Source of the DNA: Candidatus Daviesbacteria bacterium
Lineage (GTDB): Bacteria; Patescibacteriota; Microgenomatia; Daviesbacterales; UBA10151
Assembly (NCBI GenBank): GCA_016176465.1
Contig: JACOXD010000006.1
Span: 71,878 to 135,877, forward strand
Direction of reading: 5' to 3'
DNA: 64,000 bases
Made by a program: the position numbers and the translations under genes. This document shows, in pieces, positions 1,235 to 46,929 of this stretch; position 1 is the stretch's first letter, and every line of letters starts with the position of its first letter. The notes below the pieces were generated by a model that made no database searches, was not told where the DNA came from, and worked only from the letters and a program-made list of their open reading frames with translations.

Positions 1235-2263
1235 CTATTTTTTAGATACACTTCTTTTATATAAATCCAAATTTTCTAAAGCCATTCCTGTGCCTAAAAT
1301 AACTGACAAAAGTGGATTCTCAGAAATATGACAAGGAACCCCTGTTTCCTCAGTCATCAACTTATCAAGGTTACTCAGTAAAGATGTACCTCCTGACATT
1401 ACTATTCCTTTATCAATAATATCTGAGGCTAGCTCAGGTGGAGTTTGTTCTAAAACTCCTTTAACAGCGCCAATTATTTTTCTGACGGGATCGGAAATAG
1501 CCTCAGTTATCTCTACAGTAGATAAAACGATTGTCCTTGGCAAACCTGTTGGAGAATCTCTTCCCCTAACTTCCATCTTTTTTACCTCTAGCTCTTTAGG
1601 CAAAATAGCACTACCAATCCTGACTTTAATCTCCTCTGCTGCCCGCTCACCAATTATTAAGTTGAATTTTTTCCTAATATAGTTTTGGATTGCCTCATCA
1701 ATTTTATTTCCTCCAACTCTGACACTACTATGAACTACCACTCCGCCCAAACAAATCACTGCTGCCTCTGCTGTACCTCCACCAATGTCAACAATCATAT
1801 TTCCTGATGGGTTAGCAATGGGAATATTTGCTCCAATAGCTGCAGCCAGTGGTTCATCTATTAGATAGGCAGTTTTAGCTCCAGCAGATAAAGTTGCATC
1901 AAGCACTGCTCTTCTTTCAACAGAGGTAACGCCAGCAGGTACACAGACCATTACTTCTGGTTTTAAAAACCGCATAGAACCCAATACTCTGTCTATAAAA
2001 TACCGAAGCATCGCTTCTGTGATTACATAATCAGCAATAACCCCATCTTTCATCGGACGGGAAGCCATAATATTACCAGGAGTCCTACCTAACATTTCCT
2101 TCGCTTCATTGCCTACTGCTAAAACTTTATTATCATCAGTAGAAATTGCTACAACAGTAGGCTCATTTAGAACAATACCGCTACCTGCTAAATAAACTAA
2201 GCTATTGGCAGTACCTAAATCTATTCCTATACGCTTTGAAAGATTAAACATAATCTTTGTCAT
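1235..2263 (-). CDS. mreB: Rod shape-determining protein MreB (actin-like ATPase)
   Basis: Contains IGIDLGTANSLVY, DIGGGTAE and GGTSLL, the classic MreB phosphate and adenosine motifs. The true start is probably the second Met (MFNLSK) near 2251. The first ATG (ATGACA) is the terminal TGTCAT of an adjacent palindromic repeat. Confidence 0.9.
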   Translation of the reverse strand: MTKIMFNLSKRIGIDLGTANSLVYLAGSGIVLNEPTVVAISTDDNKVLAVGNEAKEMLGRTPGNIMASRPMKDGVIADYVITEAMLRYFIDRVLGSMRFLKPEVMVCVPAGVTSVERRAVLDATLSAGAKTAYLIDEPLAAAIGANIPIANPSGNMIVDIGGGTAEAAVICLGGVVVHSSVRVGGNKIDEAIQNYIRKKFNLIIGERAAEEIKVRIGSAILPKELEVKKMEVRGRDSPTGLPRTIVLSTVEITEAISDPVRKIIGAVKGVLEQTPPELASDIIDKGIVMSGGTSLLSNLDKLMTEETGVPCHISENPLLSVILGTGMALENLDLYKRSVSKK

Positions 2264-2340
2264 TCTGATGGTCCACTGGACCAGAAGAATCTAATGAGAT
2301 CCTTCCTCCCTAAAAGGGGCCCGTGCCCTCAGGATGACAA
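2259..2340. repeat. Palindromic mini-element copy A (TIR TGTCATTCTGA ... TCAGGATGACA with internal hairpins)
   Basis: Carries terminal inverted repeats tgtcattctga/tcaggatgaca and the inner palindrome ggtccactggacc. It shares its architecture with copies at 8008, 8499 and 9932. Confidence 0.7.
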
Positions 2341-6649: not shown

Positions 6650-8410
6650 TCACATTTTTTTAGGAGCATTAATACCTAACAAATCTAAACCTGATCTAAT
6701 AGTCTCAACAACTTTAGCAGTTATTGCTAATCTTAGATTAGATTTCTCGGACTTAATTATGGGAAATTTAGTATAAAAAAGATTAAATGCCTTTGCCAAA
6801 TTTAGTAGGTACTCGCCAATTAAATTTGGTTTAAGCTCTTTGCCAGCTTGAGCTATTATTGAATCATAGTATTCAGTTAACCTTAGAATTTCCCTCTCCT
6901 CAAGCTCTAAATTTATACCTTGGGGATTTAATTCTTTATCTCCACTATATTTAGACTGTTCTAAAACTGAATTAGCGCGTGCGTGGGTATATTGCAAATA
7001 AGGTCCGCTGTCTCCTTGTAGGGAAACTGATTTTTCCAAGTCAAATATCACATTTGTTTTTGGGGAGTATTTTAAATAAGCAAACTTTATCGCACCTAAG
7101 GCTACAACTTTTGCCACTTCTTCATCTACTTTTAGCCTGTTCTCTCTCATAATATCTTTAACTCGATCAATAACCATATTTAATATATCATCAACTGTTA
7201 TAACCTCTCCGCTGCGGGATGACATTTTTCCTTCTTTAATATCTACCATTCCATAAGATAGGTGAAATTTTTTGCCTTTTAAGTGAGGAAAAAGCATTTC
7301 AACAGCCTTAAAAACTACTCGGAAGTAACCTTCTTGTTCAGCTCCAACAATATGGATGCTTTTGTCATAATTAAATGTATCAAACTCTAACTTAGCTAAT
7401 CCTGTTTCTTTGGCCTCATAGGTAGGGTTTCCTGCAGCTGTTATGAATACTCTATTGTGTAAACCATATTTTTCCCCTGGGAAGATAATAGCTCCTTTAT
7501 CCTCTTCAAAAACTTTACCTACATTAGCCAGTACCAGTTGCCTACCTTCCAACTCCACTTCGCTCTCAAAAAAACAGTGGTCGTATTTAATACCAAAAAG
7601 ATTATAAACAGGCTCAAAATAAGCTAGACTCCACTCCCTGGCCAGCTGATAAATCTCCATCAAATTTTGATCTTTAGCATAAAGCCTATTATTAAGATCA
7701 TCTATCTCTACTTTAGCTTCTTTATCCTCATCATATGCTTTATTACCTTGCGCATAAGATTGGCCTAAAAATTTAGCTTTTTCTTCATGAGATAATTCAC
7801 CTTTTGGTAAACCCAATTTTTCAATACCCCAAATAGCCTTAGCTATATGCAAACCAATATCCCCTTGGTAATTGGCCCTAAATACTTTATTCCCCAAACT
7901 CTCTAGTATTCTGGAAAGGCTTTCTCCTAAGAAAAAAGTTCTTAGATGACCTATGTGAATCTCTTTAAGGGGGTTAACATGACCATACTCAATTAGATAT
8001 TTTTTCTTGTCATCCTGAGCGCGGGCCCCCGAAGGGGAGAAGGATCTATTTTTCAGATTCTTCTCCGGCGAAGCCGGATCAAGAATGACAGACTCAAGCA
8101 AAATTTCATCCTTTATAAAAAAATTAATAAAACCTCCCCCAGCAACTTCTACTCTTTCTAAATAAGTTGGATGGCCTAACTCTTTTAAAATTTGATTAGC
8201 AACATCCATTGGAGACTCGCCTCGCTTAGCACTTGGCGAAGCGGGTTGCTCACTTTTTCCTTGCTTTTGTTTAGTAAGTTGTAAAGCCACATTCGTAAAG
8301 TAGTCTCCAAATTTGGGGTTTTCTGGAATAGATATAAATATATCAGTTGTTTTTAACCCTAATTTAGAAATTGCTTTTTGCAAATCTTTTTCTAATTGCA
8401 CTTTTATCAT
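6650..8410 (-). CDS. argS: Arginyl-tRNA synthetase
   Basis: Class I motifs HIGHLR and MSSRSG (the KMSKS equivalent) plus the ArgRS anticodon-binding C-terminus. It carries an in-frame palindromic-repeat insertion at residues ~108-135. Confidence 0.9.
   Translation of the reverse strand: MIKVQLEKDLQKAISKLGLKTTDIFISIPENPKFGDYFTNVALQLTKQKQGKSEQPASPSAKRGESPMDVANQILKELGHPTYLERVEVAGGGFINFFIKDEILLESVILDPASPEKNLKNRSFSPSGARAQDDKKKYLIEYGHVNPLKEIHIGHLRTFFLGESLSRILESLGNKVFRANYQGDIGLHIAKAIWGIEKLGLPKGELSHEEKAKFLGQSYAQGNKAYDEDKEAKVEIDDLNNRLYAKDQNLMEIYQLAREWSLAYFEPVYNLFGIKYDHCFFESEVELEGRQLVLANVGKVFEEDKGAIIFPGEKYGLHNRVFITAAGNPTYEAKETGLAKLEFDTFNYDKSIHIVGAEQEGYFRVVFKAVEMLFPHLKGKKFHLSYGMVDIKEGKMSSRSGEVITVDDILNMVIDRVKDIMRENRLKVDEEVAKVVALGAIKFAYLKYSPKTNVIFDLEKSVSLQGDSGPYLQYTHARANSVLEQSKYSGDKELNPQGINLELEEREILRLTEYYDSIIAQAGKELKPNLIGEYLLNLAKAFNLFYTKFPIIKSEKSNLRLAITAKVVETIRSGLDLLGINAPKKM
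8008..8090. repeat. Palindromic mini-element copy B, inserted in-frame inside argS
   Basis: TIRs tgtcatcctgag ... gatcaagaatgaca with inner hairpins gggcccccgaagggg and tccggcgaagccgga. The argS ORF reads through it as ILDPASPEKNLKNRSFSPSGARAQDDKKKY. Confidence 0.75.
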
Positions 8411-8498: not shown

Positions 8499-8587
8499 AG
8501 TCATGCTGAGCGAATTTGTCATTCTGAGCCGAAGGCGAAGAATTTAGTCTAGAGATTCTTCCCAGGCTTTGCCTGATCAGAATGACA
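8499..8587. repeat. Palindromic mini-element copy C (composite, with an extra degenerate half-unit) in the argS-argG spacer
   Basis: The sequence reads agtcatgctgagcgaatt + tgtcattctgagccgaaggcgaagaattt ... agattcttcccaggctttgcctgatcagaatgaca. Confidence 0.7.
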
Positions 8588-8596
8588 TTTTCCTTT

Positions 8597-9845
8597 TTAC
8601 TTACCACCAATCTGCTTTGCTAGCCTCATTTGCAGAGAATAAATTTCTATAAACCCTGCTGAAGCATTCACATTAAATGAATAGCCTCCCAAATTAGTAA
8701 ATGAGGTATGATCTAAACCATAAGGAGACTGCATTGCCACCACATCTACTTTACCTTTATAAAGTTTAAGGGTAACTTCTCCAGTCACCTTCTCATTTAC
8801 AAAGTCATTAAAAGTATTTATTGCCTCCATAACAGGATCAAACCATAAAGCACCATAACAAAGATAGCCCCATTTAGTATCAAGTTCTTGCTTTAGCTCA
8901 TTTAAATTCCTGGTAGAAACATATTTTTCCAATGCTTTATGAGCCTCAATCAATACATGTCCTGCAGGCATTTCATAAACTCCACCATTCTTAACTCCAA
9001 CTAATCTATCCTCAAACATATGAACCACCCCTACCCCATGTTTTCCTGCTAACTTGTTGAGCTTTGCTATCAACTGAGAAAGTTTCAACTTTTGGTCATT
9101 TAAAGCCACAGGAATTCCTTTTTTAAAGGTTACTTTAATTAGTTCCTCCTTATTTGGTGCGTTTTTAGCCAAAGTATAGGTAGTTAGGAATTTTTCAATG
9201 GGAGCTATTAGTTGTGGCTCTTCAATTTCTCCACCTTCCCAGGTCATTCCCCACATGTTGTCATCAACTGAGTAGGGAAAATCTAATGATGCTGGTACAG
9301 GAATTCCATTAGCTTTGGCATATTTAATTTCTTCATTCCTATCCATTGCCCATTCCCTGACAGGTGCAATTATTTTCATTTTAGGATCAAAAGTTAAAAT
9401 ATAGCCTTCAATCCTGACTTGATCATTACCCTTACCAGTACAACCATGGGCTATAGCATCAGCTCCTACTTTTTTAGCAATCTTAACTGAATTTTTAGCT
9501 AACACCGCTCTTCCCATTGGCGTAGAAAGATAGTAATTACCTTGGTATGAACCATTAGCCTTAATTCCTTTGGCAATATAATTCTCTGCAAACTCATCTT
9601 TTAAATCTAAAACTAAAGCCTGCTTTGCTCCAAACTTTAATGCTTTTTGTTTAATGGCTTCCAAGTCATCATGTTGCTGTCCTAAATCAGCGGTTAAAGT
9701 TATTACTTCACACTTATACTCATCCTGAATCCATTTAAGCATTACTGAGGTATCCAAACCTCCTGAATAGAGCAAAAGTACTTTTTTAACTTCTCCTATT
9801 TTTCCCTCATATGAGGCTACTTTGATATATTTAGTATCATTTTTC
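8597..9845 (-). CDS. argG: Argininosuccinate synthase
   Basis: N-terminal PP-loop KKVLLLYSGGLDTSV, then GCTGKGNDQVR and the ArgG-type C-terminus. The tracked ORF runs to 9937 through repeat copy D (MTIVSPPSRLLGRSFEGRARLRRARRE...). The more likely start is GTG at 9845, preceded by GGAGGTG (MKNDTKYIKV...). Confidence 0.8.
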
Positions 9846-10937
9846 ACTATTCTCACCTCCCTTCTTGCCCTCCGAAGCCTTGCTCGGCCTTCGAAGCTCC
9901 GGCCAAGGAGGCGCGAAGGAGGGCTTACTATTGTCATCCTGATGGTCCAATGGACCAGAAGGATCTAAATACAGATTCTTCGCTCCGCTCAGAATGACAC
10001 TCGCCACTTTTTTGTATGCCTCTCTGAAAGGCATCCCCTTACTAACCAATTTCAATGCTTTTTCTGTGGCATATAGCTCTTCAGTCATAGCTTTATCTAG
10101 AATCTCTTTATTGGGAGTTAAGCCCTTAACTAACAAACTAGCCACTTTTAGCGAGCCTAAAGTTAAATCCAAACTTTCCATAAATGGCTTTTTGCTATCT
10201 TGGAAATCCCTATTATAGCCTGAAATTAAATTTGTAGATAAAGAGACAATTTGAACATAATTTCCTAAGACTAGGTGGACCTTGGCTCTTAAAACCTCTG
10301 CAACATCAATGTTTTTCTTTTGTGGCATGATACTGCTTCCAGTAGTTAGGTTCCCTGCTACAGAAAAAAAGTTAAATTCAGATGTGGTAAATAACAATAC
10401 ATCTGATGCAAACTTATTAATATCCTGCAAGATTGTAATTAGGCAAGAAAGTATTAATTCTTCAAATTTTAGCCTTGAGTGCTGGCAATAAATGGGATTT
10501 TCTTGGACTTTAGCAAAGTTAAGTAGTTTTGCACTTAATTGCCTATCTATTTTAATAGGAATTCCATAACCTGCTCCTGATCCATAACCTGCTCCTGAAC
10601 CTAAGGGAGATTGGTCAATCAATTTATAGATAGTATCCAGATATATCAAATCATCACTTAATGAATCAACAAAGCAATCAGCCCACAACTTTATTGAGCT
10701 TGGCATTGCTTTTTGCATATGGGTATAACCAGGCATAGGAATATCTTTATGTTTCTTCCCAAAACTCTTAAAGCTTGTTTTTAGGTTTTCCAATTCTTGT
10801 TTCACTAAATTTAGCTGCTCTTTTGAATAAAGCCTTAAGGCTGTTAAAACTTGATCGTTTCTTGATCTGGCTGTATGGATTTTTTTCCCTGCTTCGCCAT
10901 AATTTTTTGTTAAGTAATCCTCTATCTTTGTATGCAT
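9837..10937 (-). CDS. argH: Argininosuccinate lyase, atypical (N-terminal region missing or compressed; C-terminal tail reads into repeat D)
   Basis: Signatures TARSRNDQV, GSSIMPQKKN and SPLGSGAG identify ArgH. Upstream of the reported Met the frame continues only as ...KLWKQGKFNLELGDEDMHTK to a TGA. A separate short ATG frame gives MKKLWQKGN followed by a stop, so about 70 N-terminal residues typical of ArgH are absent. Confidence 0.7.
   Translation of the reverse strand: MHTKIEDYLTKNYGEAGKKIHTARSRNDQVLTALRLYSKEQLNLVKQELENLKTSFKSFGKKHKDIPMPGYTHMQKAMPSSIKLWADCFVDSLSDDLIYLDTIYKLIDQSPLGSGAGYGSGAGYGIPIKIDRQLSAKLLNFAKVQENPIYCQHSRLKFEELILSCLITILQDINKFASDVLLFTTSEFNFFSVAGNLTTGSSIMPQKKNIDVAEVLRAKVHLVLGNYVQIVSLSTNLISGYNRDFQDSKKPFMESLDLTLGSLKVASLLVKGLTPNKEILDKAMTEELYATEKALKLVSKGMPFREAYKKVASVILSGAKNLYLDPSGPLDHQDDNSKPSFAPPWPELRRPSKASEGKKGGENSEK
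9932..9999. repeat. Palindromic mini-element copy D at the argH 3' end / argG 5' end, with degenerate GC-rich repeat debris upstream (about 9850-9930)
   Basis: The sequence reads tgtcatcctgatggtccaatggaccagaaggatct ... agattcttcgctccgctcagaatgaca. The left half is nearly identical to the left half of copy A. Confidence 0.75.
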
Positions 10938-11045
10938 ATCCTCATCCCCTAGCTCTAAGTTAAATTTCCCTTGTTTCCAAAGCTTGAGAATTTCAATTAC
11001 CTTTTTGCCATAACTTTTTCATAATTTTTTCCTTTCTTAGCTTTT

Positions 11046-28014: not shown

Positions 28015-30681
28015 ATGAAAAAAAGAATAATCAACACCACTATTACTTTTTCCCACTTAATTATCTTCTCTCTACTTTCTGCTTTAGTATCTTTTATTTA
28101 TTGGATCTGGGCTGGCAAAGATTATATTTTTGCTAAAACTCCAATAGGTGGAGATTATTTTAATGCCCTTACTTACGCTCAGTTTTTTAAAGATCACTTA
28201 AATCTACCACCCCAAGGTTGGGTACCTTTTTGGAATGAGGGTTCACCAATAATTAGTGGTTATCCTTGGGCTTTTTTTTATCTGCTTTATCCTCTAACTA
28301 AATATTTTGATCTTCCAACAGCCATGGATTATCTTTCCATAGCTTTCTTATTGCTATTTTTTATCTTCTCGCTCACCTTTTTTTATCAAGCTGCAAAAAA
28401 CTGGCTGGTTGCATCCGCTTTTGTGTTAATTCTTCTAATCACCCGTGCTAGTTATTATCCGTTAATGACTGGTGGATTTATCTCATCAGCTTCAGCCATG
28501 TGGTATTTACCAGCTATCTTATTTTTAATTCTAAAGTTTGCAGACTCAAAAAAACAATTTTTTTTAATTCTCGCTTCAATTTTAGAAGGTTTATCATTAA
28601 TTCACCATGCTCCGACCTCTTTACTTATGGTTATCGCTCCAACTACATTAGTATTAGCCTTACTCCCCAACCAAGGAAATATTAAAAAAAGATTTTTTAC
28701 TACCGTTAAATTTCTGATCATCTCTTTTTTAATTGGAGCAATGAGTTTATATACTGTAATCTTACAAGCCTATCTAGGATCAGGTTCCGGAGCCTGCGCA
28801 AGTCCCCAATGTTGGGGAATTTACCCGAAACATTTAATAACTTGGTTAAATCCCCTAACTTTAGGAATCATAGGGGGAGGTGTAATGCTAATCTTAATAA
28901 CCCGAATCATAAAAAGAGATTCTAAATCAGTAGAGTTATTGTTACCTTTACTCCTTGGATTTGCTTTTTTTGTCTTCTACGCAATGCTGGCAAAACTAGA
29001 ACTGATAAACGGCTTCGCCAACGTTATCTTTCCTACTAGAACTTTTTGGGCCGCAAATTTATTTGCATTGGGTATAGGGGCAATATCTTTTAGAATTTTT
29101 AATCTCAAATTTAGGAAAATTGGCCATATTTTAGCCTTAATTATCCTTATTGGCATAGCTATTCCGACTTATCTTTATTCTGTTCCTCCTGACATCCACC
29201 ATGACTTTACAGCTACAGATCCTTTGGATGTAGCCATCTATACAATCCCTAAATACCAAACAAAACAAGTCTCTGAATTAGTAGCGGACTTTGTACCACT
29301 TAATGAAGCAAACTGGAGGCTTGATTCATTTAACCCAGGACTCATACATTGGTGGAACTATGTGGCAACTACTCCCTCAGTGAGGGGGTATTCAAACCAC
29401 CCTGTTGGGAAACTTCGCGATTGGCAATATTTTTTACAAACATCAACCAGAGATCCTCAGGATGAAAACCAAGAATTAATTAAAAACAGAGCTCATTTTT
29501 TGATTGATGCTTTTGGGATAGGATTTAGAGATAATTCTGTAGCAAGTTACCCAATTTCCATCCTTTCTGATCAAAGCCTAATTACTAAATCTTCCCCCCA
29601 AATGCGCAGTTTCTCCTGGATGCAGCTTTCACAGGATAAATTTAGCCCTATTATTTATCCTACTAACTCCCCTGCTGTTTTGTTTATTGGAGACGAAGGA
29701 GGTTATGAGAATTTTTTAAGGGCAATTGCATTAGTTAATTTAAACTCAAAAGTTTTAACTCCGGTCAGAGGTCCAAACGACATAGGAAAAATATCACTAG
29801 ATGAATTAAACCAGTTTGATTTAGTGGTAGCTTATGGCTATAAAGGCAATAACTTCGACAAGATCGCTAGATATGTTAAAAATGGTAAAGCTTTATTTAT
29901 TGACACTGCCTCGGGAAGTGACCAGACACTTAAGAATACTGCTGATATTTTTCCACTTACTAAACTTTCTAAAAGAGAAGTTAAGGAAAGCTGGAAGTCT
30001 GTAATTGTAGGGCGGGAATTTGCTTTGAATGTTGATTCTAAGCTATTTAGCCCCTTCTCTTTTCAAGGAGGTAATTGGAAGTTAAACCTAGCTTCAGAAT
30101 CTAACCTAAGATCTTGGGGTAAAACCATTGTTAAACATAATCAAAATGTATTGATAGCAGGGGGGCAATTAGAAAAAGGTAAAGTTATCTGGAGTGGAGC
30201 CAATCTTTTCTATCATTTGGTTACTAATAATAACTTCGAGGAGGCTAAATTAATTAAAAACATTTTTGATTTTCTTTTACCAGAAGTGCAAGTTAAACCT
30301 GAATATAGCGTTAATCGAATTTCCCCGGAGAAAGCTATTATCGAGGCTAAAAATATCAGGGGTATTTACTTTAAAGAGAATTTTGACTTGGGATGGAGGG
30401 CAAAAATGAATGATCAATCTTTGAAAATTTATCCGGCTGGTATGGGTTTTATGTATGTACCTCTTAAGAAAGAAGTTAAAGAAGCTACCATCTCTTTAGA
30501 TTATGGGGGAAGTTTACTAGCCTGGTTGCTCTTTTTGATAAGTATCATCTCTTTTGTTTTTACCCTAATCTATTTACTACTTCCAAAACCTTTTATACTT
30601 ATATCCAGCGCCATCCAAAAACCAATTATAGAAAGATTTAATAAAAAAGTTAAGGAGTTACTTAAAGAAGAAGATGAGTAA
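28015..30681 (+). CDS. Large polytopic membrane protein, YfhO-like (GT-C-type glycopolymer glycosyltransferase candidate), paralog 1
   Basis: About 13 predicted TM helices in the first ~400 aa, then a ~430 aa extracytoplasmic domain, a C-terminal TM (LLAWLLFLISIISFVFTLIYLL) and an acidic tail KELLKEEDE. It is paralogous to 37972..40845 and 40818..43706. Confidence 0.5.
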   Translation: MKKRIINTTITFSHLIIFSLLSALVSFIYWIWAGKDYIFAKTPIGGDYFNALTYAQFFKDHLNLPPQGWVPFWNEGSPIISGYPWAFFYLLYPLTKYFDLPTAMDYLSIAFLLLFFIFSLTFFYQAAKNWLVASAFVLILLITRASYYPLMTGGFISSASAMWYLPAILFLILKFADSKKQFFLILASILEGLSLIHHAPTSLLMVIAPTTLVLALLPNQGNIKKRFFTTVKFLIISFLIGAMSLYTVILQAYLGSGSGACASPQCWGIYPKHLITWLNPLTLGIIGGGVMLILITRIIKRDSKSVELLLPLLLGFAFFVFYAMLAKLELINGFANVIFPTRTFWAANLFALGIGAISFRIFNLKFRKIGHILALIILIGIAIPTYLYSVPPDIHHDFTATDPLDVAIYTIPKYQTKQVSELVADFVPLNEANWRLDSFNPGLIHWWNYVATTPSVRGYSNHPVGKLRDWQYFLQTSTRDPQDENQELIKNRAHFLIDAFGIGFRDNSVASYPISILSDQSLITKSSPQMRSFSWMQLSQDKFSPIIYPTNSPAVLFIGDEGGYENFLRAIALVNLNSKVLTPVRGPNDIGKISLDELNQFDLVVAYGYKGNNFDKIARYVKNGKALFIDTASGSDQTLKNTADIFPLTKLSKREVKESWKSVIVGREFALNVDSKLFSPFSFQGGNWKLNLASESNLRSWGKTIVKHNQNVLIAGGQLEKGKVIWSGANLFYHLVTNNNFEEAKLIKNIFDFLLPEVQVKPEYSVNRISPEKAIIEAKNIRGIYFKENFDLGWRAKMNDQSLKIYPAGMGFMYVPLKKEVKEATISLDYGGSLLAWLLFLISIISFVFTLIYLLLPKPFILISSAIQKPIIERFNKKVKELLKEEDE

Positions 30682-33219: not shown

Positions 33220-34970
33220 AGAAACCCATTTATATTTTAGGGATCAGTGAAAGTCACTGCGCCAGCGCAGCTTTACTTAAGGATGGTGAGCTGATCGCTT
33301 GTGTGTCAGAGGAAAGATTCACTAGAAAAAAATTACAATCAGGCATTCCTAAAAATGCAATTAAATATTGTTTTAATTTTGCCAAGATAACTGCATCTGA
33401 TTTATCTTTAGTCGCTTTAGCTGATTTTGAATCACCATTTTTGACTGCTAGGGAGTCTACTTACGACAAATTCAAAATTCTATCCATACTGGGGAAGCCG
33501 GTCTTATGGCTAGAAGAAAAAATAGAGAGAAAAGTTCCCAATTCCCAGGAACTTTTTTATCGAATTTATAGATTCTTTGCTAAATCGAACCAAACGCAGA
33601 GGCAAAAAAGGAGAATTAAAAAGCTAAAGGCTACAGTTTCTTTACCCTCAGATAAATTTAAGTTTGTCCAGCACCATCTTTGTCATGCCTCTGCGGCATT
33701 GTTTTCCTCTCCTTTACCCTCAAAGGAAAAAGAAGCACTCATTTTTACTTGCGATGGTGTAGGCGATTTTGAATCAGCTACTCTTTCAAAATACAGTGAT
33801 GATCGGATTAAAAAAATAGTCAGTATAAACTCTCAACAATCACTAGGTTTTTTTTATCAACATATCACCCAATTTTTAGGGCTTAAACCAATTGAGGATG
33901 AATATAAAGTCATGGGCCTAGCCCCCTACGCAGATCCGAAAAAAGCATTTCATACATATAAACTACTCTCTCCCTACTTCAAATTTAGCCTTAAGCAAAA
34001 CAAGTGGCAAATATTGGTAAGTGAACATCACCTTCAGGGAAAATTTCCCAAACTACTCCTTAATAAAAGATTTGACCATATCGCCTACTCTGCACAAAGA
34101 ATCATTGAAGAGTTACTAATAAGATGGGTAAAGAAAGCGCTAGAGGAATTTAAAATTAATAACCTAGTATTTGGTGGAGGAGTTTTCGCTAATGTTAAAG
34201 TAAATCAAAAAATTGCCAGCCTGGATAGAGTTAATAGCTCCTTTTTCATGCCCTCACCTGGTGATGAATCAAACGCCATAGGTGGTGCATTTTACTCTTA
34301 CTTTCAATTAACAGGGCAAAAACCCAAGCCTATCTCACATCTTTATCTTGGCCCACAGTTTTCGGAAAAAGAGATAAAACGATCTTTAAAAGGAAAATCA
34401 AAGTATAAGGTAGAAAAAATAAGTGACATCAATAGTACTCTTGCTAGGTTATTAGCTAAAGGAGAGGTAGTAGCTCGTTTTGCTGGTAGAATGGAATATG
34501 GAGCAAGAGCTTTAGGTAATCGTTCAATTTTAGCTAATCCTAAAAATCCATCCATAGTAGAATTCATCAATTCTGCTATTAAAAACAGAGATTTTTGGAT
34601 GCCTTTTGCCCCAACGATTTTAAGAAGCAATGCCAAGAAGTATTTAAAAATTCACTCAAGTGATTCTTTATTTATGAATGTTTCATTTGAAACAACAAAA
34701 AAAGCCTGGGAAGATTTAGCCGCGGCTTTGCATCCTTTTGATAAGACAACCAGACCTCAAATTCTGGATCAAGAGATAAATCCTAGCTACTATGATTTAA
34801 TTAAAAAATTTGAAAAACTTACTGGAGTGGGAGCAATACTTAATACTTCTTTTAATCTTCACGGTGAGCCGTTAGTTGCTAGCCCAGAAGATGCACTTCG
34901 GGTTTTTGACTCATCTAAGCTAAAATATCTTGCTCTGGAAAATATTTTAATAGAAAAAAAAGATGGGTAA
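33216..34970 (+). CDS. Carbamoyltransferase (NodU/CmcH/NovN family O-carbamoyltransferase)
   Basis: N-terminal ILGISESHCASAALLKDGELIACVSEERFTRKK (the YqgF/Kae1-like Carbam_trans_N signature) and HHLCHAASA. A 584 aa length is typical of the family. Confidence 0.8.
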   Translation: MKKPIYILGISESHCASAALLKDGELIACVSEERFTRKKLQSGIPKNAIKYCFNFAKITASDLSLVALADFESPFLTARESTYDKFKILSILGKPVLWLEEKIERKVPNSQELFYRIYRFFAKSNQTQRQKRRIKKLKATVSLPSDKFKFVQHHLCHASAALFSSPLPSKEKEALIFTCDGVGDFESATLSKYSDDRIKKIVSINSQQSLGFFYQHITQFLGLKPIEDEYKVMGLAPYADPKKAFHTYKLLSPYFKFSLKQNKWQILVSEHHLQGKFPKLLLNKRFDHIAYSAQRIIEELLIRWVKKALEEFKINNLVFGGGVFANVKVNQKIASLDRVNSSFFMPSPGDESNAIGGAFYSYFQLTGQKPKPISHLYLGPQFSEKEIKRSLKGKSKYKVEKISDINSTLARLLAKGEVVARFAGRMEYGARALGNRSILANPKNPSIVEFINSAIKNRDFWMPFAPTILRSNAKKYLKIHSSDSLFMNVSFETTKKAWEDLAAALHPFDKTTRPQILDQEINPSYYDLIKKFEKLTGVGAILNTSFNLHGEPLVASPEDALRVFDSSKLKYLALENILIEKKDG

Positions 34971-35661: not shown

Positions 35662-37975
35662 AATAGCCATAATTATAGATAAACTCCAACCTGGGGGAGT
35701 TCAAATAAGTGCGATTGAATACGTTCGCAACTTAAATAAGCTGAATCACCAAGCTAAACTTTTTATCCTAATGAGGGAAGAGATCGATCAAAGCCCCCCT
35801 TTGCTAACATCAGATGTACCCTTTAGTTATCTTTCTGATTCCTATCCCAAACCGTTTAGAAAAAGTATTAAATTTCCTTTTTTTAATTTTTTCTCTACCA
35901 ATCATCTTTGGTCAATACTTTTTGCTCCAAGACAATTTAGTAAAGATAAATTCGACATTATCATCGGAATGGGAGCTTCCACCTGTCTTACTGTAGCCTC
36001 AATCAGTAAATTAAAAAAGATTCCCTATATTGCCATAATTCATGACCCCATAACTTTTATTCTTAAAAAGTGCTACTATGATACTCCCCTAAGGTTTGCA
36101 TTTCCCATACTTTTGCCACTGGGAGAATTTTTGGAAAAAATAATAGTTAAATCAGCCACAAAGACTATTTTAATTTCCAAGGTTCATTTCAATTACTTTG
36201 TATCGAATTTTAAAATCCATCCTTTAATCTTACCCTTAAGCACAGATTTTCCTAAAAGATTATCCTCTAGAAAAAAAGAGCGAATTCTTTCCTTTGGCCG
36301 TTGGGATAATCAAAAAAAACCGGAGTTCTTGATAGAGCTAGCAAAGTCTTTGCCCAAAATTCCCATAACTATTGCTGGCAGCTGGACAAATCCTAAAGAA
36401 TTAGCTGATTTTAAACTAAAGATAGTTCAATCAAAACTTACAGATCAAATTCAAGTTACCCAAAGCTATACTAAAACTAAATTAGCTAGACTATGTCGTC
36501 AAGCCCTTGTCTGGGTTTATCCTAGCTTTGAATCATTTAGTCTTTCAGCATTGGAAGCAACATCTTTCGGATTACCTATTATTATCCCCGCCAAATCAGG
36601 TATAACTGAGTATTTTGAACATGGAATTCACGGTTTTTTTCCTAAAGGCTTGGATTTAAATGAATATAAAAAATACATTTTGAAACTACTTAGAGATAGA
36701 AGTCTTGCTGAGAGAATGGGTAACCTAGCCTACAAAACTGCCAAAAGTAAGTTTTCATCTCTAGCTAATACTAAAGATTTGCTAACTTCAGTTAATACAA
36801 TCTTAAATAAAGATAATCCAAGGATATTTGTCTTGGAAACTGCACACACTAAAGAAGCAACTCCAGCTGGCGGAGACTTACTTATGCGACCGATGGCTGA
36901 AAAGTTAAAAGAAAAGTTTAAATTTACAATTATTGTACCCAAAATTGCTAATAAATATTGGCAAGAAAGTCCAATCCATAAAGAAATTATCTCCCTCCCT
37001 CGGACTTCTCTTGATAATTCTGTTAATCCTTTTTCTATTTTTATCAATTATGTAATAAGAATAGTAAAATCAACGAAGATTTTACTTAATAACTCAAAAA
37101 AAGATACTATTTACTCATCAACTGATATTTTGACAGACACTTTCCCGGCTTTTATAACTAAGCTTATTCATAAAGATAGTAGGTGGATTGCAAGAGTACA
37201 CCACCTTATACCTCCCCCTCTTAACAGAGAAGGCAATTTTCTGGTTAATTTAATCTCTTTTTTACTACAGAGGATTTCAATTAATTTAATTAAACTTCAG
37301 GCTGATTCAATTTTAGCTTTAAATGATAATTTAAGAATAAACTTAGATAAATTGGGGTTACCCAAAGCTAAATTAAGGGTGTTGGGTGCTGGAATAAATT
37401 ATCATGATATATCCTCTCAAAAGGTCCTTACTAATACTAAATCATATGATGGTGTCTTCTTGGGTAGGTTACACCGTACTAAGGGGGTCTTTGATTTGAT
37501 CCCGATTTGGAAAGAGGTCGTTAAGAAATATCCAAAAGCTAGACTGGGAATTATTGGCAAAAGCTATGATAGTACACCTTTAAAACTAAAGAGACAGATT
37601 CAAAAATCAAATCTTCAAAAAAATATCTTCCTACTAGGTTACTTAAAAGAGAAAGAAAAAATTTCTATCTTAAAAAAAGCTAAGGTATTTTTATTTACTG
37701 ATCATGAAGCTGGTTTTGGGATAGCGGTTGCTGAAGCTATGGCAGCAGGACTACCTGTTGTCGGTTGGGACATTGGAATATTAGGGAATGTATATAAAGC
37801 AGGTTATCTTTGTAGCAAAAAAGGAGATTATCAAGATTTTGGGTTAAATATAACTAAATTGCTAGAGAATGGTCAAACTTACAAGAAAGTTTCTAGCTCT
37901 GCTCGCAGGGTAGCCTCGGGATTAGATTGGAGTAAAACATCTAATCAGTTTTTGAAAATTGCAGAACAAATTTAG
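35654..37975 (+). CDS. Tandem double GT4-domain glycosyltransferase (777 aa)
   Basis: Two GT4 C-terminal signatures, ESFSLSALEATSFGLPIIIPAKSGITEYF (~residue 300) and EAGFGIAVAEAMAAGLPVVGWDIGILGNV (~residue 700). The likely start is ATG at 35654 (MTKIAII). Confidence 0.6.
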   Translation: MTKIAIIIDKLQPGGVQISAIEYVRNLNKLNHQAKLFILMREEIDQSPPLLTSDVPFSYLSDSYPKPFRKSIKFPFFNFFSTNHLWSILFAPRQFSKDKFDIIIGMGASTCLTVASISKLKKIPYIAIIHDPITFILKKCYYDTPLRFAFPILLPLGEFLEKIIVKSATKTILISKVHFNYFVSNFKIHPLILPLSTDFPKRLSSRKKERILSFGRWDNQKKPEFLIELAKSLPKIPITIAGSWTNPKELADFKLKIVQSKLTDQIQVTQSYTKTKLARLCRQALVWVYPSFESFSLSALEATSFGLPIIIPAKSGITEYFEHGIHGFFPKGLDLNEYKKYILKLLRDRSLAERMGNLAYKTAKSKFSSLANTKDLLTSVNTILNKDNPRIFVLETAHTKEATPAGGDLLMRPMAEKLKEKFKFTIIVPKIANKYWQESPIHKEIISLPRTSLDNSVNPFSIFINYVIRIVKSTKILLNNSKKDTIYSSTDILTDTFPAFITKLIHKDSRWIARVHHLIPPPLNREGNFLVNLISFLLQRISINLIKLQADSILALNDNLRINLDKLGLPKAKLRVLGAGINYHDISSQKVLTNTKSYDGVFLGRLHRTKGVFDLIPIWKEVVKKYPKARLGIIGKSYDSTPLKLKRQIQKSNLQKNIFLLGYLKEKEKISILKKAKVFLFTDHEAGFGIAVAEAMAAGLPVVGWDIGILGNVYKAGYLCSKKGDYQDFGLNITKLLENGQTYKKVSSSARRVASGLDWSKTSNQFLKIAEQI

Positions 37976-40845
37976 TCCTCCTCCTCTTTCTCCCACCACT
38001 TTTGTGTCCTCTTTTGCAATTTATTCCAGGTATAGTTTTTAACTTTGCCGGAAATTATTCCTCTTAGAAGTATTAGCTCTAACAGAAGTAGTATGAGAAG
38101 GCCTGATAAAGTAATGATAACTTTGTGCTCAAGCGAGCCACTAAAGGAAAATTTAACCTCCATTTTATCCTTGCTCGGTAAAAAAACATACATATAGCCT
38201 GGAAAGGTGGGTCCAGCTTTAAAGATTTTCAGCTCTCCCCGCTTTCCGCTTGGAGTTTCATACCAGGCTCGCCAACCATCATAGGCTTGCTCTTTAAAAA
38301 GTACCCCCTTAGCATTTTCACCCTCGATTAACCTTAAATTTGGGTTTTTAAAATTAACCTGAAAAGGAATTGGTGGTTTTTTACTTAAATCAAGCATGCC
38401 GGAAAATATATTTTTAGCAAATTTTGCCTCTTCTTGATTGTGGTTTCGGGTAACATGGTAAGCAAAGTTTAATCCTGACCAAATAACTTTTCCACTCCCT
38501 ACAGCATAAGTTGCCATGACTACCTGATTTTTATTTTTAAGTATTATTTGAGCACCACTTCTTAGTTCTTTTTCTTCACCATAAGACAACTTCCACTCTG
38601 ATTCATCAAATATTGGCGCTGAGAATTTTTGAAAGTCAATTTCTTGATTAAACGGGTGGTTGCTAGCATCCAACTTCCATTCCTTACCCATTCCCCTTCT
38701 TTGAACCTTTTTAATTGGGAAAAAGTCCGGCAGTTCCCCTGATGATTGTTTCACTTCTACTCCGGTATCAATAAAGACTTTTTTTCCATCAGTTACATAT
38801 TGCTTTAGTCTTCTAAATACCGCTTCCCCATCTCCTACTTCATAATCATAGAGATAGAGAGCATCAAAATTTTGCAGAGTAGTTAAATCTATTTTATCTA
38901 AGGACCTACCAAGCTTAATTGGTATTAAAACTTGGGAATTAAGATTGTCTTTTTCAGCAATAAGTCTAATCACTGTTTCATATCCTTGATCTGATGCAAA
39001 TACCCCCATGGTGGGCACATTGGTCGCAGCCATTACCGGTGAAGTTACCTCAGGTTTAAATTCATAGTAATTTAAAGTTACCGGTCTATTAGTATATTTC
39101 TCATCATTGAAATCAAGTGTTTCTGTTTTATTAACTAGCAACTCTTGAAGATATTTAGGAACAGGTGTATAAACATTGCCGATATGACCACCCTCAAAAT
39201 AACGAATAGCGTTCCAGTCAACCAGGAATAATGCATTGGATATGGTTGTCTCCAGGGGGTATTTAAAGGATTTAACCAATTGTGGTTCACCTTCAGACTC
39301 AGAGAGTGCTGAATCAAGCCAAAATATATAACCACGCTGGCTGGCGTTTATCGGCGGGTCAATATATCCCCTGGCTAAAGGCATTTTAAACATACTGGGC
39401 CACCAGATATTTACAGTCTGATCTCCCTCATAAAATCTAAAATTGCTACTCTCACCATCAAGCCAAGCAGGAACTAACCTCTCTTTAAGTTTTTCTCGAT
39501 CAACCTCTGAAATCCTTAGATTCAAAATATCAGGATGGGCGGATGTAACTTGACCTCTATATATTAGATTACTAAGGGTTAAATTTATAGGGTAAGAGAC
39601 TAAATGGATAGCACCTACATAAATTACCACCAGGTTCAAAACTAAAATTGTTGCCAAGCGCAAAGTTTTTGTTTTGAAAAAAGTATTTAAATTATCGACA
39701 CTCGCTCTCCAAAAAACTGCAGCTAGCATACCTATCCAAATAGGAACTGACCAAAATAGTCTATACCAGCCTCCATGATAAATTGATATCCCTTCCCCAA
39801 AAAGCCAGACATAAAGAAAAAAATAGGCAGTAATCAGAACATATGGCAGTACTGTCAACATACTTTTTAAGTTTCTACTAATAATCAGGCTAAGTACAAA
39901 AACTAAACCTAACGTAGCGGCCATTATAAAAGGTAAAAGATGGTTATCAGTAACCACCCGTTGAACTTGGGCTCTGCTGAAGGTTTGTTGTATCTGTTGA
40001 TACTCTTTATCTGCGGCAGTAGTGGTCGAAAGACTTATCCTTTCGGTATCAGTCTGAATAGCCGCTTGAAGAGAGCCTTCAAAAGTAGAATAAAATAGCG
40101 GTAAACCAATAAGCAGCGAGACTAGCAAAAAAAACAACCATTGCTTTATCTTGGAAAAAATTCGCCATCCCCCACTCAAGTTGGCGAATATCAAAATAGA
40201 AACTGCTGGTAGAATATAAACCACAAAAATCAAAGGATGTCCCAAAATTGAGATTCCAGCAATTAAGACACTGGATAATAAATAATAAGGTTTAAAACTT
40301 TTAAGGTATAAAACCAAAAACATTAAGCTCCAGGGAAGGGCTGCTTGAGTACCGTAGCTTGGTAAGCTTCCCGCCCAAGTTAATGTTTGATAGACCCCCC
40401 CGGAAAATCCCACTGCAATACTTAAAAAGATAGACAAAAGAAAATTGCGGCTAATGGCGAAAAATAAAAAGTATGCTCCTATGATAAAAAGGGCGGCAGA
40501 TACCATCATCCAAATTTGAATTGAATAAACTAAATCAAAAAAGTTAGAAAAAAAATAAGCTATATACCCATGTAGCGGAGGATAAATGAAGGCCGGCCAC
40601 CCACCAAAGCCAGAATAATTCCATAGGGCAAAAGGTGCAACAAAGTTTTGCTTTAAAAGTTGTGTGATAGTTACGAGTAAATGAAAATCTACACCAAATA
40701 AGGGTCGGAAGTTTATATACCAATCTGCAATAGGTTTCCAGATATAGATAATCAAACTAATTGACAATAAGTGGAGCAAAATCAAAACAGGAAGTGTCAA
40801 CTTACCAATAATTTTCATCAAGCTTCCTCCTCTTTCTCCCACCAA
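37972..40845 (-). CDS. Large polytopic membrane protein, YfhO-like, paralog 2
   Basis: Same architecture as 28015..30681. Shared blocks include NIWWPSMFKMPLARGYIDPP, GSGKVIWSGLNFAYH, AGPTFPGYMYV, a C-terminal TM and the tail WWEKEEED. Confidence 0.5.
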   Translation of the reverse strand: MVGERGGSLMKIIGKLTLPVLILLHLLSISLIIYIWKPIADWYINFRPLFGVDFHLLVTITQLLKQNFVAPFALWNYSGFGGWPAFIYPPLHGYIAYFFSNFFDLVYSIQIWMMVSAALFIIGAYFLFFAISRNFLLSIFLSIAVGFSGGVYQTLTWAGSLPSYGTQAALPWSLMFLVLYLKSFKPYYLLSSVLIAGISILGHPLIFVVYILPAVSILIFANLSGGWRIFSKIKQWLFFLLVSLLIGLPLFYSTFEGSLQAAIQTDTERISLSTTTAADKEYQQIQQTFSRAQVQRVVTDNHLLPFIMAATLGLVFVLSLIISRNLKSMLTVLPYVLITAYFFLYVWLFGEGISIYHGGWYRLFWSVPIWIGMLAAVFWRASVDNLNTFFKTKTLRLATILVLNLVVIYVGAIHLVSYPINLTLSNLIYRGQVTSAHPDILNLRISEVDREKLKERLVPAWLDGESSNFRFYEGDQTVNIWWPSMFKMPLARGYIDPPINASQRGYIFWLDSALSESEGEPQLVKSFKYPLETTISNALFLVDWNAIRYFEGGHIGNVYTPVPKYLQELLVNKTETLDFNDEKYTNRPVTLNYYEFKPEVTSPVMAATNVPTMGVFASDQGYETVIRLIAEKDNLNSQVLIPIKLGRSLDKIDLTTLQNFDALYLYDYEVGDGEAVFRRLKQYVTDGKKVFIDTGVEVKQSSGELPDFFPIKKVQRRGMGKEWKLDASNHPFNQEIDFQKFSAPIFDESEWKLSYGEEKELRSGAQIILKNKNQVVMATYAVGSGKVIWSGLNFAYHVTRNHNQEEAKFAKNIFSGMLDLSKKPPIPFQVNFKNPNLRLIEGENAKGVLFKEQAYDGWRAWYETPSGKRGELKIFKAGPTFPGYMYVFLPSKDKMEVKFSFSGSLEHKVIITLSGLLILLLLELILLRGIISGKVKNYTWNKLQKRTQKWWEKEEED

Positions 40846-45831: not shown

Positions 45832-46929
45832 ATGGATTTTTTTCACTCCCATATATCTTCATACTCTATTAAACTTGTTAAAGATACTCTAAAGTCTGGA
45901 TTCATCTCTGAAGGTAAATTAGTAAAAAGGTTTGAGGAAGAACTGGAAAAAAAGCTAGGCTTAATAAACCCTATCGCTTTAAATGGCGCAACTTCTGCAC
46001 TGCATTTAAGTTTAGTTTTAGCCGGTGTTTCGCAGGGCGATGAGGTAATTATTCCTGCCCAGACATTCGTAGCTACGGGCCTGGCGGTTTTAATGCAGCG
46101 GGCTAAACCTATTTTTGCGGATATTTTAATAGATAGCGGAAATATTGATCCCCTATCAATTAAAAAAAAGATAACTAAGAAGACTAAAGCAATTATTGCT
46201 GTTCACTGGGGCGGATATCCTTGTGACTTAAAAGAAATTAATGAGATAGCCAAAAAAAATAACCTAGTAGTTATTGAAGACGGCGCTCATGCTTTGGGAG
46301 CAATGTATAGGGGTAAACCAATCGGATCTATTTCAAGATTCACTATTTTCTCTTTTCAGGCTATTAAACATTTAACCACCGGAGACGGTGGAGCACTCTG
46401 CTGTTTTAATAAAAAAGATGGAGATAATGCAAAAGTACTACGCTGGTTTGGAATAGATCGGGCGAACTCAAAACCTTCTATCCTAGGTGAGAGAAAGTAT
46501 AATATTAACCAACTTGGCTTTAAGTATCATATGAATGATTTAGCTGCCTCACTGGGACTTGGAAACTTAGAAGACTTATCTAAAACTATTAAACGTAGAC
46601 AAGAAATCGCTTTGAGGTATCGATCTTCTCTTAATAGAGTTCCTGGAGTTAAACTTCTAGATTATAAAGATGATCGCCAAAGTTCATTTTGGCTTTTTAC
46701 TATATTAGTTAAAAAGCGCAACAAGTTTATAAAAAAACTACTATCAAAAAATATCCCAAGTTCAGTAGTTCATTTAAGAATCGACCATAATAAAATTTTT
46801 GGCGGATTAACTCCTAATCTTTTTAACCAGGAAAGGTTTAACCAAGAACAAATTTCTATTCCTATCCATGATGCGCTGACAGATCAAGATGTTGAACTAA
46901 TTATTAAAACTATAAAAAGCGGTTGGTAA
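45832..46929 (+). CDS. DegT/DnrJ/EryC1/StrS-family PLP-dependent sugar aminotransferase
   Basis: Has GFISEGKLVKRFEEELEK, the PLP-lysine block FSFQAIKHLTTGDGGAL and WFGIDR. Confidence 0.85.
   Translation: MDFFHSHISSYSIKLVKDTLKSGFISEGKLVKRFEEELEKKLGLINPIALNGATSALHLSLVLAGVSQGDEVIIPAQTFVATGLAVLMQRAKPIFADILIDSGNIDPLSIKKKITKKTKAIIAVHWGGYPCDLKEINEIAKKNNLVVIEDGAHALGAMYRGKPIGSISRFTIFSFQAIKHLTTGDGGALCCFNKKDGDNAKVLRWFGIDRANSKPSILGERKYNINQLGFKYHMNDLAASLGLGNLEDLSKTIKRRQEIALRYRSSLNRVPGVKLLDYKDDRQSSFWLFTILVKKRNKFIKKLLSKNIPSSVVHLRIDHNKIFGGLTPNLFNQERFNQEQISIPIHDALTDQDVELIIKTIKSGW

Follow-up and report, generated by a model that had tools for sequence, protein, structure and literature searches.

A palindromic element, probably a REP-type dimer, lying in-frame in argS (arginyl-tRNA synthetase) of a Candidatus Daviesbacteria bacterium

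The arginyl-tRNA synthetase (ArgRS) gene argS in a 64-kb stretch of a Candidatus Daviesbacteria genome carries an in-frame palindromic element of 81 nt, here called element B, which is one of four copies of a dispersed repeat family. The whole 64-kb stretch is referred to as the window; its source is a metagenome-assembled genome (MAG) of the Candidate Phyla Radiation (CPR)/Patescibacteria with a G+C content of ~34%. We consider it probable, at roughly 80%, that B is a tolerated selfish insertion of a dimer of repetitive extragenic palindromes (REPs) in a permissive linker of argS. Events of this kind are already known from intragenic CGTC-tagged REPs and Rickettsia palindromic elements (RPEs), aminoacyl-tRNA synthetase (aaRS) genes included; the host lineage and the host gene are new, as is, probably, the variant of the repeat arm. 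The features of argS that carry the argument are as follows.

6650..8410, minus strand: argS (arginyl-tRNA synthetase), 586 aa, a single intact open reading frame (ORF), host of element B and insert 2
8009..8089, minus strand: element B core GTCAT...ATGAC, 81 nt = 27 codons, V108-D134; found by pattern match and aligned with copies A, C and D
8055..8089, minus strand: first arm of B in coding sense, GTCATTCT(T)GA - TCCGGCTTCGCCGGA - GAAGAATCT, with one T more than the canonical CTGA
8048..8054, minus strand: inter-arm spacer of B, GAAAAAT in coding sense
8009..8047, minus strand: second arm of B in coding sense, AGATCCTTC - TCCCCTTCGGGGGCCCGCGC - TCAGGATGAC, a close match to the right arm of copy A
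8216..8245, minus strand: insert 2, a GC-rich hairpin module of 30 nt, CCC GCT TCG CCA AGT GCT AAG CGA GGC GAG = P56-E65 (PASPSAKRGE)
7946..7957, minus strand: HIGH signature, CAC ATA GGT CAT = H152-H155, in columns invariant in the 120-sequence alignment

All three Pfam domains of ArgRS are present in the window protein (Arg_tRNA_synt_N, residues 5-99; tRNA-synt_1d, 131-457; DALR_1, 472-586), as are the HIGH and MSSR (KMSKS-type) motifs, and the protein is 100% identical to NCBI MBI2011673.1 (arginine--tRNA ligase, Candidatus Daviesbacteria bacterium). A search of 5.8 billion proteins yielded 4602 ArgRS relatives, the top 120 of which were aligned: the window ArgRS (P0001) and 119 orthologues that are 55-65% identical to it, the best non-self match reaching ~60% by BLASTP and 65% over conserved columns. 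No closer relative of P0001 with an empty site was found among the 5.8 billion proteins. None of the residues that are invariant in the 120 ArgRS has been lost from P0001, including H152, G154, H155, R157 and K395-R399. The order argS-metallophosphatase-ndk is kept in other Daviesbacteria contigs, and the argS flanks are collinear with those of the orthologues.

The original prediction, made from the window sequence, had placed a palindromic element at 8008-8090, in-frame within an argS that continues uninterrupted across it, and had likened it to the RPEs. The first two points are confirmed here: the interval comprises the core of B plus a flanking T and A, with its exact limits at TGTCATCCTGA...TCAAGAATGACA, and the 586-aa ORF passes through it without a frameshift. 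In coding sense, B reads GTC ATT CTT GAT CCG ... GCT CAG GAT GAC (V108..D134) in the protein context ...ESVILDPASPEKNLKNRSFSPSGARAQDDKKKY..., V108-D134 falling within ...LLESVILDPASPEKNLKNRSFSPSGARAQDDKKKYLIEYGHVNPLKEIHIGH; one peptide to be expected from the insert region, if translated, is NLKNRSFSPSGAR, and HIGH begins 17 residues past D134. Three of the four sequence blocks of the family are exact in B and the fourth has one extra base, and B can be aligned end to end with copy A. The first arm reads CTTGA where the family has CTGA, and the canonical sequence would run the frame into a TGA. Because B carries its extra T where the canonical frame meets this TGA, either an in-frame variant was inserted or the event was imprecise.

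Whether orthologues that lack the repeat nevertheless keep a homologous peptide had been proposed as a check, and none of the 119 has either, an outcome in favour of the RPE-like interpretation. The DNA repeat at the B site is absent from the orthologues in the 120-sequence alignment, and the peptide segment SVILDPASPEK...SGAR occurs at the site in P0001 only (0/119 orthologues). The site lies in a linker of low conservation that joins the tRNA-binding Add1 domain at the N-terminus to the first Rossmann strand. This linker (F97..E141) has 43 residues in P0001 and 28 in 96 of the 119 orthologues (range 24-42). An element of 27 codons has thus lengthened the linker by only 15 residues net, which implies that ~13 native linker codons were lost; judged from the alignment, the event would not have been a clean insertion: either the element replaced native sequence as it went in, or a deletion came after it. 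The same linker holds independent inserts in two other orthologues, a short one in P0022 and, in P0003, a single GTCAT-type arm (CAT GAT TCT GGA CGT ACA AAG TTT GCC AGA ATG ACA). The first H of HIGH stands at residue 152 as against a median of 127 in the 119 orthologues. A displacement of HIGH to about residue 152 had been anticipated and is real, but B alone does not account for it: of the 25 extra residues, 15 come from B and 10 from insert 2.

An AlphaFold2 (AF2) model based on the 120-sequence alignment reached a pLDDT of 88.3 and a pTM of 0.89, and Foldseek matched it to the solved ArgRS structures 2zue, 6ao8, 5yym and 1f7u at a TM score of ~0.8. The pLDDT falls below 50 in exactly two segments, 51-63, which overlaps insert 2, and 113-132, within element B, and both inserts are opposite gaps in the sequence alignment to 2zue and 1iq0. 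The model supports a functional ArgRS with two extra loops predicted to be disordered; the disorder prediction and the position of the loops suggest that they are exposed at the surface.

Element B belongs to a family that is clearly overrepresented in the window. The pattern GTCATYCTGA-N(5-30)-GAAGRATYT-N(3-10)-AGATYCTTC gave six matches at four loci in the 64 kb, as against 0.00 expected from 100 dinucleotide-preserving shuffles. Besides B, the loci and an associated partial arm are the following.

2259..2338, plus strand: copy A, intergenic, upstream of mreB; its end ATGACA is the mechanical ORF start of mreB
8518..8586, plus strand: copy C, in the argG-argS intergenic region
8500..8514, plus strand: truncated extra arm GTCATGCTGAGCGAA, directly abutting copy C
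9933..9998, plus strand: copy D, 66 nt, in the 3' tail of the argH ORF and in the same frame as B (VILSGAKNLYLDPSGPLDHQDD)

The tag of all four copies is TGTC. Copies A and D have one arm that is 92% identical (family D8), and A and B, the latter in coding sense, have the other arm in common, AGATCCTTC-(C)TCCC...GGGGCCCG.GC-TCAGGATGACAA; these common arms identify the copies as paralogues that arose by multiplication within this genome. The window's first 10 kb holds all four, three of them in a 2-kb region about argG/argS, a clustering that suggests local hopping or a regional hot spot. The truncated arm beside copy C suggests a nested insertion or a partial duplication of the repeat.

The architecture of the family was derived from a scan that took a single genome for each GTDB species and matched it at no fewer than 120 loci in many phyla; the frequencies given below refer to the 86 full copies, and to the arms, among the matches listed. 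The family element is an inverted pair of tagged hairpins. Each arm forms its own stem-loop, (T/C)GTC - ATYCT - GA - [nested hairpin] - GA - AGRAT - CTN. The Y-R pairs within arms are Watson-Crick in 86/86 copies for GTCATYCTGA/GAAGRATCT and in 84/86 for AGATYCTTC/TCAGRATGAC, as against only 24-26 of 86 between arms. A four-way junction or cloverleaf RNA, considered from minimum-free-energy (MFE) folds, was ruled out because the covariation is found within and not between the arms. The stem starts with A-T and T-A and consists of 5 bp, tandem G.A and a nested stem of variable length. The nested hairpin is mostly GCGAAGC with a 3-nt loop, and many are expanded to 9-31 nt with their self-complementarity kept (for example, GGCGAAGCC, GGGCGAAGCCC and GTCCCGCCTTTGGCGGGAC); it is closed by at least 2 bp in 80% of arms compared with 12% of shuffles, and this closure is by G-C in 124 arms and by A-T in 28. 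Counted over 268 arms, GTC is preceded by T in 195 and by C in 54, and the arm tail CTN is CTC, CTT or CTA. Heterotypic dimers, with one C/G arm and one T/A arm, account for 60 of the 86 copies; singleton arms were also found (in P0003, in P0017 and at window positions 8500-8514).

Little beyond the tag is conserved around the elements: the only flank signal is a T at -1 and an A at +1, and 78 of 85 copies have no flanking direct repeat of 2 nt or more. Among 2135 ORFs within ~4 kb on each side of the 120 loci listed, only housekeeping families recur and no transposase does. A classical MITE (miniature inverted-repeat transposable element) was ruled out by the lack of a target-site duplication and of a recurrent transposase near these loci. 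No GTAG tag occurs in the family, the tag being YGTC. Rfam gave no ribozyme, intron, riboswitch or small RNA (sRNA) match at the gathering threshold or at E values up to 10, and a hammerhead-like ribozyme was rejected on inspection because the CUGA...GAAG core has neither the G8 nor the A9 of the hammerhead, with no Rfam match to it. Neither Pfam nor NCBIfam holds a model that matches the translated element, and literature searches by the repeat string GTCATYCTGAGCG and the peptides VILSEAK and FAQNDK returned nothing relevant.

The only stops in the conserved family blocks are the TGAs of CTGA and TCAGRATGAC. Of 172 strand readings, 92 are open throughout in phase 0 (GTC ATY CTG) and none in phase 1; B and D are both in phase 0 and read VIL...QDD. 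Element length modulo three is uniform overall (31/28/26), and about seven of the 86 full copies are inside long open frames; the in-gene copies outside the window mostly have a length divisible by three and are read in phase 0. Pfam was run on five host ORFs, and in four the domains span the insert. In-frame copies were seen in a P-type ATPase of a Levyibacteriota MAG (...IVPST-VILSGAKNLEKKDPSPALRDQDD-ILGIL...) and, within one Saccharibacteria MAG, in a class-I aaRS and in TsaD. In a surface-repeat protein of an Oscillospiraceae MAG, a copy is present and the single Pfam hit stops short of the insert. An IleRS-like gene of a Rickettsiales MAG (L025) has a GA-type dimer, the arm variant of the window family, at aa 879; its ORF shows further element-like segments, ...SPSTDPALSLRSPQDD... 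and ...SPLGRGRGEGEES..., which suggests multiple REP-type inserts in one aaRS gene. At two other loci, L057 and L106, the frames look spurious and the DNA is GC-rich.

In-frame GTCAT-type elements also occur in argS of other Daviesbacteria (P0038, P0064, P0003 and P0017). Those of P0038 (VIPAKAGIH...GSGMT) and P0064 (VILGSEE...LARMT) are full dimers in the linker between the catalytic and anticodon-binding domains. The family is found in the cultured isolates Flavobacterium sp. ST-75, Pedobacter sp. Bi126 and Lutispora saccharofermentans, and it is therefore not a MAG artefact. A plasmid collection gave one partial match, unannotated, in Calothrix.

By their tags, GTAG or CGTC, REPs have been divided between two superfamilies (Di Nocera, De Gregorio & Rocco 2013, BMC Genomics 14:522, PMC3733652). 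As described in that survey, CGTC REPs have an unpaired (C/T)GTC tag, an 8-9-bp stem beginning A-T, T-A, a 4-5-nt loop and a short tail that is mostly CCA; the units are mostly inverted dimers, many of them heterodimers, and the description includes no dedicated transposase. More than half of the intragenic CGTC REPs reported there occur as dimers or as repeats in groups, coding for 20-30 aa, and its supplementary table includes CGTC-1 dimers in the GlyRS-beta (VVPAKAGTS...IPASAGMT) and IleRS of Erythrobacter litoralis. The survey reports the superfamily from five phyla, mostly alpha-proteobacteria, and none in CPR. As far as its account of CGTC-1 to CGTC-4 extends, the window family resembles these REPs in its YGTC tag, A-T/T-A stem start, inverted dimers and intragenic copies. 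It differs from them in a stem composed of ATYCT, tandem G.A, a nested variable GC-rich hairpin and AGRAT, in a CTN rather than CCA tail, and in a commonest inner loop of 3 instead of 4-5 nt. The peptide signatures of the window family (VILS..., ...QDD) are absent from the survey's intragenic REP table. CGTC-1-like arms (TGTCATTCCCGTGAAAACGGGAATCCA) co-occur with the family in the fetched loci, as does one plain hairpin arm, TGTCATCCTGAACTTGTTTCAGGATCTA, which resembles CGTC-2 going by the survey's Sulfurovum peptide RHSELVSGS, back-translated here. Compared with CGTC-1 to CGTC-4 by their descriptions, the window element is best placed as a REP dimer with a CGTC/TGTC tag, in a variant family designated GA-type.

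RPEs are palindromic repeats that lie in-frame in essential genes and are translated in a fold-compatible manner (Ogata 2000 Science 290:347; Ogata 2002 Genome Res 12:808; both as cited in PMC10969869 and PMC3733652). The likeness to them that had been proposed for B is well founded: the window element is palindromic, repeated and in-frame in an essential gene, and its family shares the tag, stem start and dimeric structure of the superfamily that includes RPE-4 and RPE-6. In Rickettsia conorii, RPE-6 is reported as CGTC-1 and RPE-4 as CGTC-4 (PMC3733652), and it is through the CGTC tag of these two, rather than through a consensus alignment, that the family is linked to the RPEs. Classic RPE-1 is ~100-150 bp long and confined to Rickettsia; the window element, unlike it, has 55-90 bp, a CPR host (Candidatus Daviesbacteria) and a family that extends across many phyla.

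The other known systems are more distant. REPINs carry a GTAG tag, are extragenic and largely lineage-specific, and have a cognate single-copy RAYT (Bertels & Rainey 2011, PMC3116915; PMC3337134). The window family has in common with them two inverted REP hairpins with a short spacer in a non-autonomous unit without target-site duplication; it is distinguished by its YGTC tag, by its partly intragenic copies and by the lack of a transposase recurring within ~4 kb of the loci. Bacterial MITEs such as Correia, ERIC, BOX, Nezha and QMITE typically have target-site duplications, often TA, and related autonomous insertion sequences (IS) (PMC10969869; PMC5896051). The window family is likewise small and non-autonomous with inverted-repeat ends and occasional in-frame ORF fusion, but it has no target-site duplication and no related IS was found within ~4 kb of its loci. 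QMITE1 and QMITE2 of Coxiella were compared with the family and judged different.

In the history that we favour, that of a tolerated selfish insertion, a non-autonomous CGTC/TGTC-tagged REP dimer would have multiplied in the genome and landed in the argS linker. It would have survived there by being read in the stop-free phase (GTC ATY CTx ... CAG GAT GAC), by having a core of 81 nt, a multiple of three, and by meeting a site that tolerates a change of length. The product would be an active ArgRS with an extra hydrophilic, disordered surface loop of 27 residues in place of ~13 native linker residues, and the loop would be a tolerated passenger without a function of its own; its neutrality and the mode of movement are inferred. 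We know of no dedicated transposase for the CGTC/TGTC superfamily.

Several points weigh against this history. The sequence is supported by one assembly only, on one contig, and translation of the insert is deduced from the integrity of the ORF and the essentiality of the gene. As the nearest orthologue is only ~65% identical, there is no near-isogenic empty site by which the insertion or the codon loss could be dated. The ~13 missing native codons are also at odds with a clean transposition, which would not delete target DNA. Furthermore, folding is predicted to be weaker in B (z of -2.2 and -2.7 on the two strands) than in the other three copies (-3.8 to -5.7), and this, with the extra base in one of its arms, means that B may be an old copy or one remodelled once it had inserted.

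An exapted insert, whose loop or messenger RNA (mRNA) hairpins gained a function in tuning tRNA D-loop recognition by Add1, as a hinge or in regulating argS translation or mRNA stability, would agree with the position of B, which separates the N-terminal domain that binds tRNA from the catalytic core, with the replacement of ~13 native residues instead of a mere addition of length, with the independent inserts in the same linker of P0003 and P0022 and with the clustering of three copies in the arg gene string. We regard such a role as unlikely, given that the insert occurs in just one of 120 ArgRS and is predicted to be disordered, and that the family enters unrelated proteins in unrelated phyla; the intragenic REPs covered by Di Nocera et al. 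also led those authors to conclude against a specific function (PMC3733652). It is very unlikely, too, that B reflects an assembly chimera or a decaying argS backed up by another copy. The support of a single MAG contig and some decay in the region, where the neighbouring argH looks N-terminally truncated, would be expected of such a case, but the ORF is intact, all residues invariant in the 120-way comparison are present, the AF2 model is confident, and both the collinear flanks and the conserved argS-metallophosphatase-ndk order in other Daviesbacteria contigs point the other way.

CPR bacteria are known for intervening sequences in their rRNA genes, and B forms strong hairpins on the mRNA strand, so that B might be an intervening sequence, cut out of the mRNA or skipped by the ribosome, and be missing from the protein. 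We hold this to be highly improbable: the Rfam searches described above gave no ribozyme or intron match, 27 aa are far too few for an intein, and an excised copy would not need to be precisely in-frame and stop-free, as B is; the in-gene copies elsewhere, mostly multiples of three in phase 0, argue in the same direction. An ordinary lineage-specific indel that resembles the repeats by chance could draw on the variability of the orthologous linker in sequence and, slightly, in length (24-42 residues), and yet has next to no probability left. With three family blocks exact and the fourth longer by one base, none expected from shuffling and an end-to-end alignment with copy A, this explanation is effectively refuted by the counts of pattern matches and the alignment with copies A, C and D.

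A second, shorter palindromic insertion in argS had been predicted at 8212-8265 as a possible relic half-element with an inner hairpin like that of the repeats. The insertion is real, with its limits at 8216-8245, and the likeness of the inner hairpin holds in part; a decayed half-element is ruled out, as insert 2 carries none of the GTCAT-family blocks. Its hairpin has an 8-bp stem, CGCTTCGC/GCGAGGCG, and PASPSAKRGE represents 10 residues that are extra with respect to 116 of the 120 ArgRS sequences. The module is present at an identical codon boundary in the other four: P0001, P0004 and P0009 (the latter two with 26-27 of the 30 nt identical) and P0041 (decayed). The four are not grouped in one clade; for P0004, P0009 and P0041 the closest relatives (83-88% identity) have an empty site, and P0001 has no relative closer than 65%. 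In P0017, a near-identical module, CCCGCTTCGCCAGAGCTTCAGCGAGGCGAG, at another position in argS, serves as inner hairpin to an arm of the form GTCATTCCCGA...TCGGGAATC, and it is here that the partial likeness to the repeats is seen. An exact-pattern scan of Joint Genome Institute (JGI) metagenome contigs for insert 2 returned only the contig of P0004 itself, and insert 2 was on this ground rejected as an abundant dispersed repeat.

Other patchy inserts in argS, of 7 aa, also correspond to perfect hairpins rich in GC, the gene as a whole having 35-42% GC: ARLPDGQ in 11, DPDxIGA in six and DSPREA in six of the 120 sequences. Small inserts of 21-30 nt are found at identical codon boundaries in phylogenetically scattered Daviesbacteria argS (L001, L003 and L125-L130). 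P0025 and P0095 have a tandem KQSLRSDDL repeat. The window itself contains further short, GC-rich perfect palindromes (for example, TTCGCCAGCTGGCGAA and TCCCCAATGTTGGGGA) at 160-201, 28803-28818, 33257-33270, 46376-46391 and 60253-60268; several are in long ORFs and could be additional mini-hairpin inserts. The small dispersed repeats (SDR) of Nostoc, which Elhai and colleagues treated in 2008, are reportedly mobile hairpin modules of 21-27 nt that are able to nest in other repeats. The 21-30-nt GC-rich inserts of Daviesbacteria argS (insert 2, ARLPDGQ and DPDxIGA) are similar to these, with a different host phylum and different sequences.

A broader and doubtful reading, which we offer tentatively, is that the GA-type TGTC dimers and the 21-30-nt modules, nested in them or lying beside them, form an active, hairpin-mobile class across many phyla that repeatedly enters, and perhaps precisely leaves, the same permissive codon boundaries in essential CPR genes. 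It is prompted mainly by the insert 2 module sharing one site in four scattered lineages, three of them with empty-site relatives, and also by its occurrence within a REP loop, at another argS site, in a fifth lineage. If this were true, the modules would contribute significantly to variation in the length of proteins encoded by minimal genomes, and their movement would rely on a host-universal or unknown enzyme rather than on a dedicated transposase.

The neighbourhood of argS offers further observations. A full-length T-box leader match (RF00230; 11092-11315, minus strand; model positions 1-219; contains ggtggtaccgcc) is placed upstream of the minus-strand string argH-argG-argS-metallophosphatase-ndk; with a sub-threshold score (25.9 bits as against a gathering threshold of 93; E 7e-4), it may be a divergent CPR T-box that controls an arginine-related operon. 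The argH ORF (9837-11030, minus strand; 366 aa) starts ...HTARSRNDQV, so that by eye its N-terminal part seems missing, and a tiny ORF upstream, MKKLWQKGN*, has the look of its former start; truncation of argH, or a pseudogene, is thus possible. Its last ~54 residues (SVILSGAKNLYLDPSGPLDHQDDNSKPSFAPPWPELRRPSKASEGKKGGENSEK; 9837-9998, minus strand) are a read-through of element D and a GC-rich palindromic block at 9855-9925. Element ends (ATGACA) form the mechanical ATG starts of argG (9937) and mreB (2263) in the minus-strand regions 9855-9937 and 2257-2263, and the real starts of both genes are probably downstream; a candidate start of argG is the GTG in GTGAAAAATGAT near 9835, preceded by GGAGGTGA of the GC-rich block. 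The element ends are thus a likely source of N-terminal mis-annotation. Farther along, two adjacent ORFs of ~960 aa (37972-40845 and 40818-43706, minus strand) contain DNA segments that are 73-77% identical (38185-39438 and 41034-42308) at a constant offset of ~2.85 kb, and look like tandem paralogous genes.

With element B, the translation of selfish palindromes inside essential genes, described so far in Rickettsia and a small number of other groups, would extend to the CPR. Insert-bearing proteins of CPR MAGs are easily mistaken for lineage-specific domains, annotation errors or novel biology; moreover, element ends give false start codons and read-through gives false C-terminal tails, as in mreB, argG and argH here. 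Two ArgRS loops, one within Add1 and one in the linker from Add1 to the Rossmann fold, emerge as tolerant of large insertions. Finally, very small CPR genomes with multiplying copies provide a narrow gene set in which the mobiliser of CGTC REPs can be sought by phylogenetic profiling.

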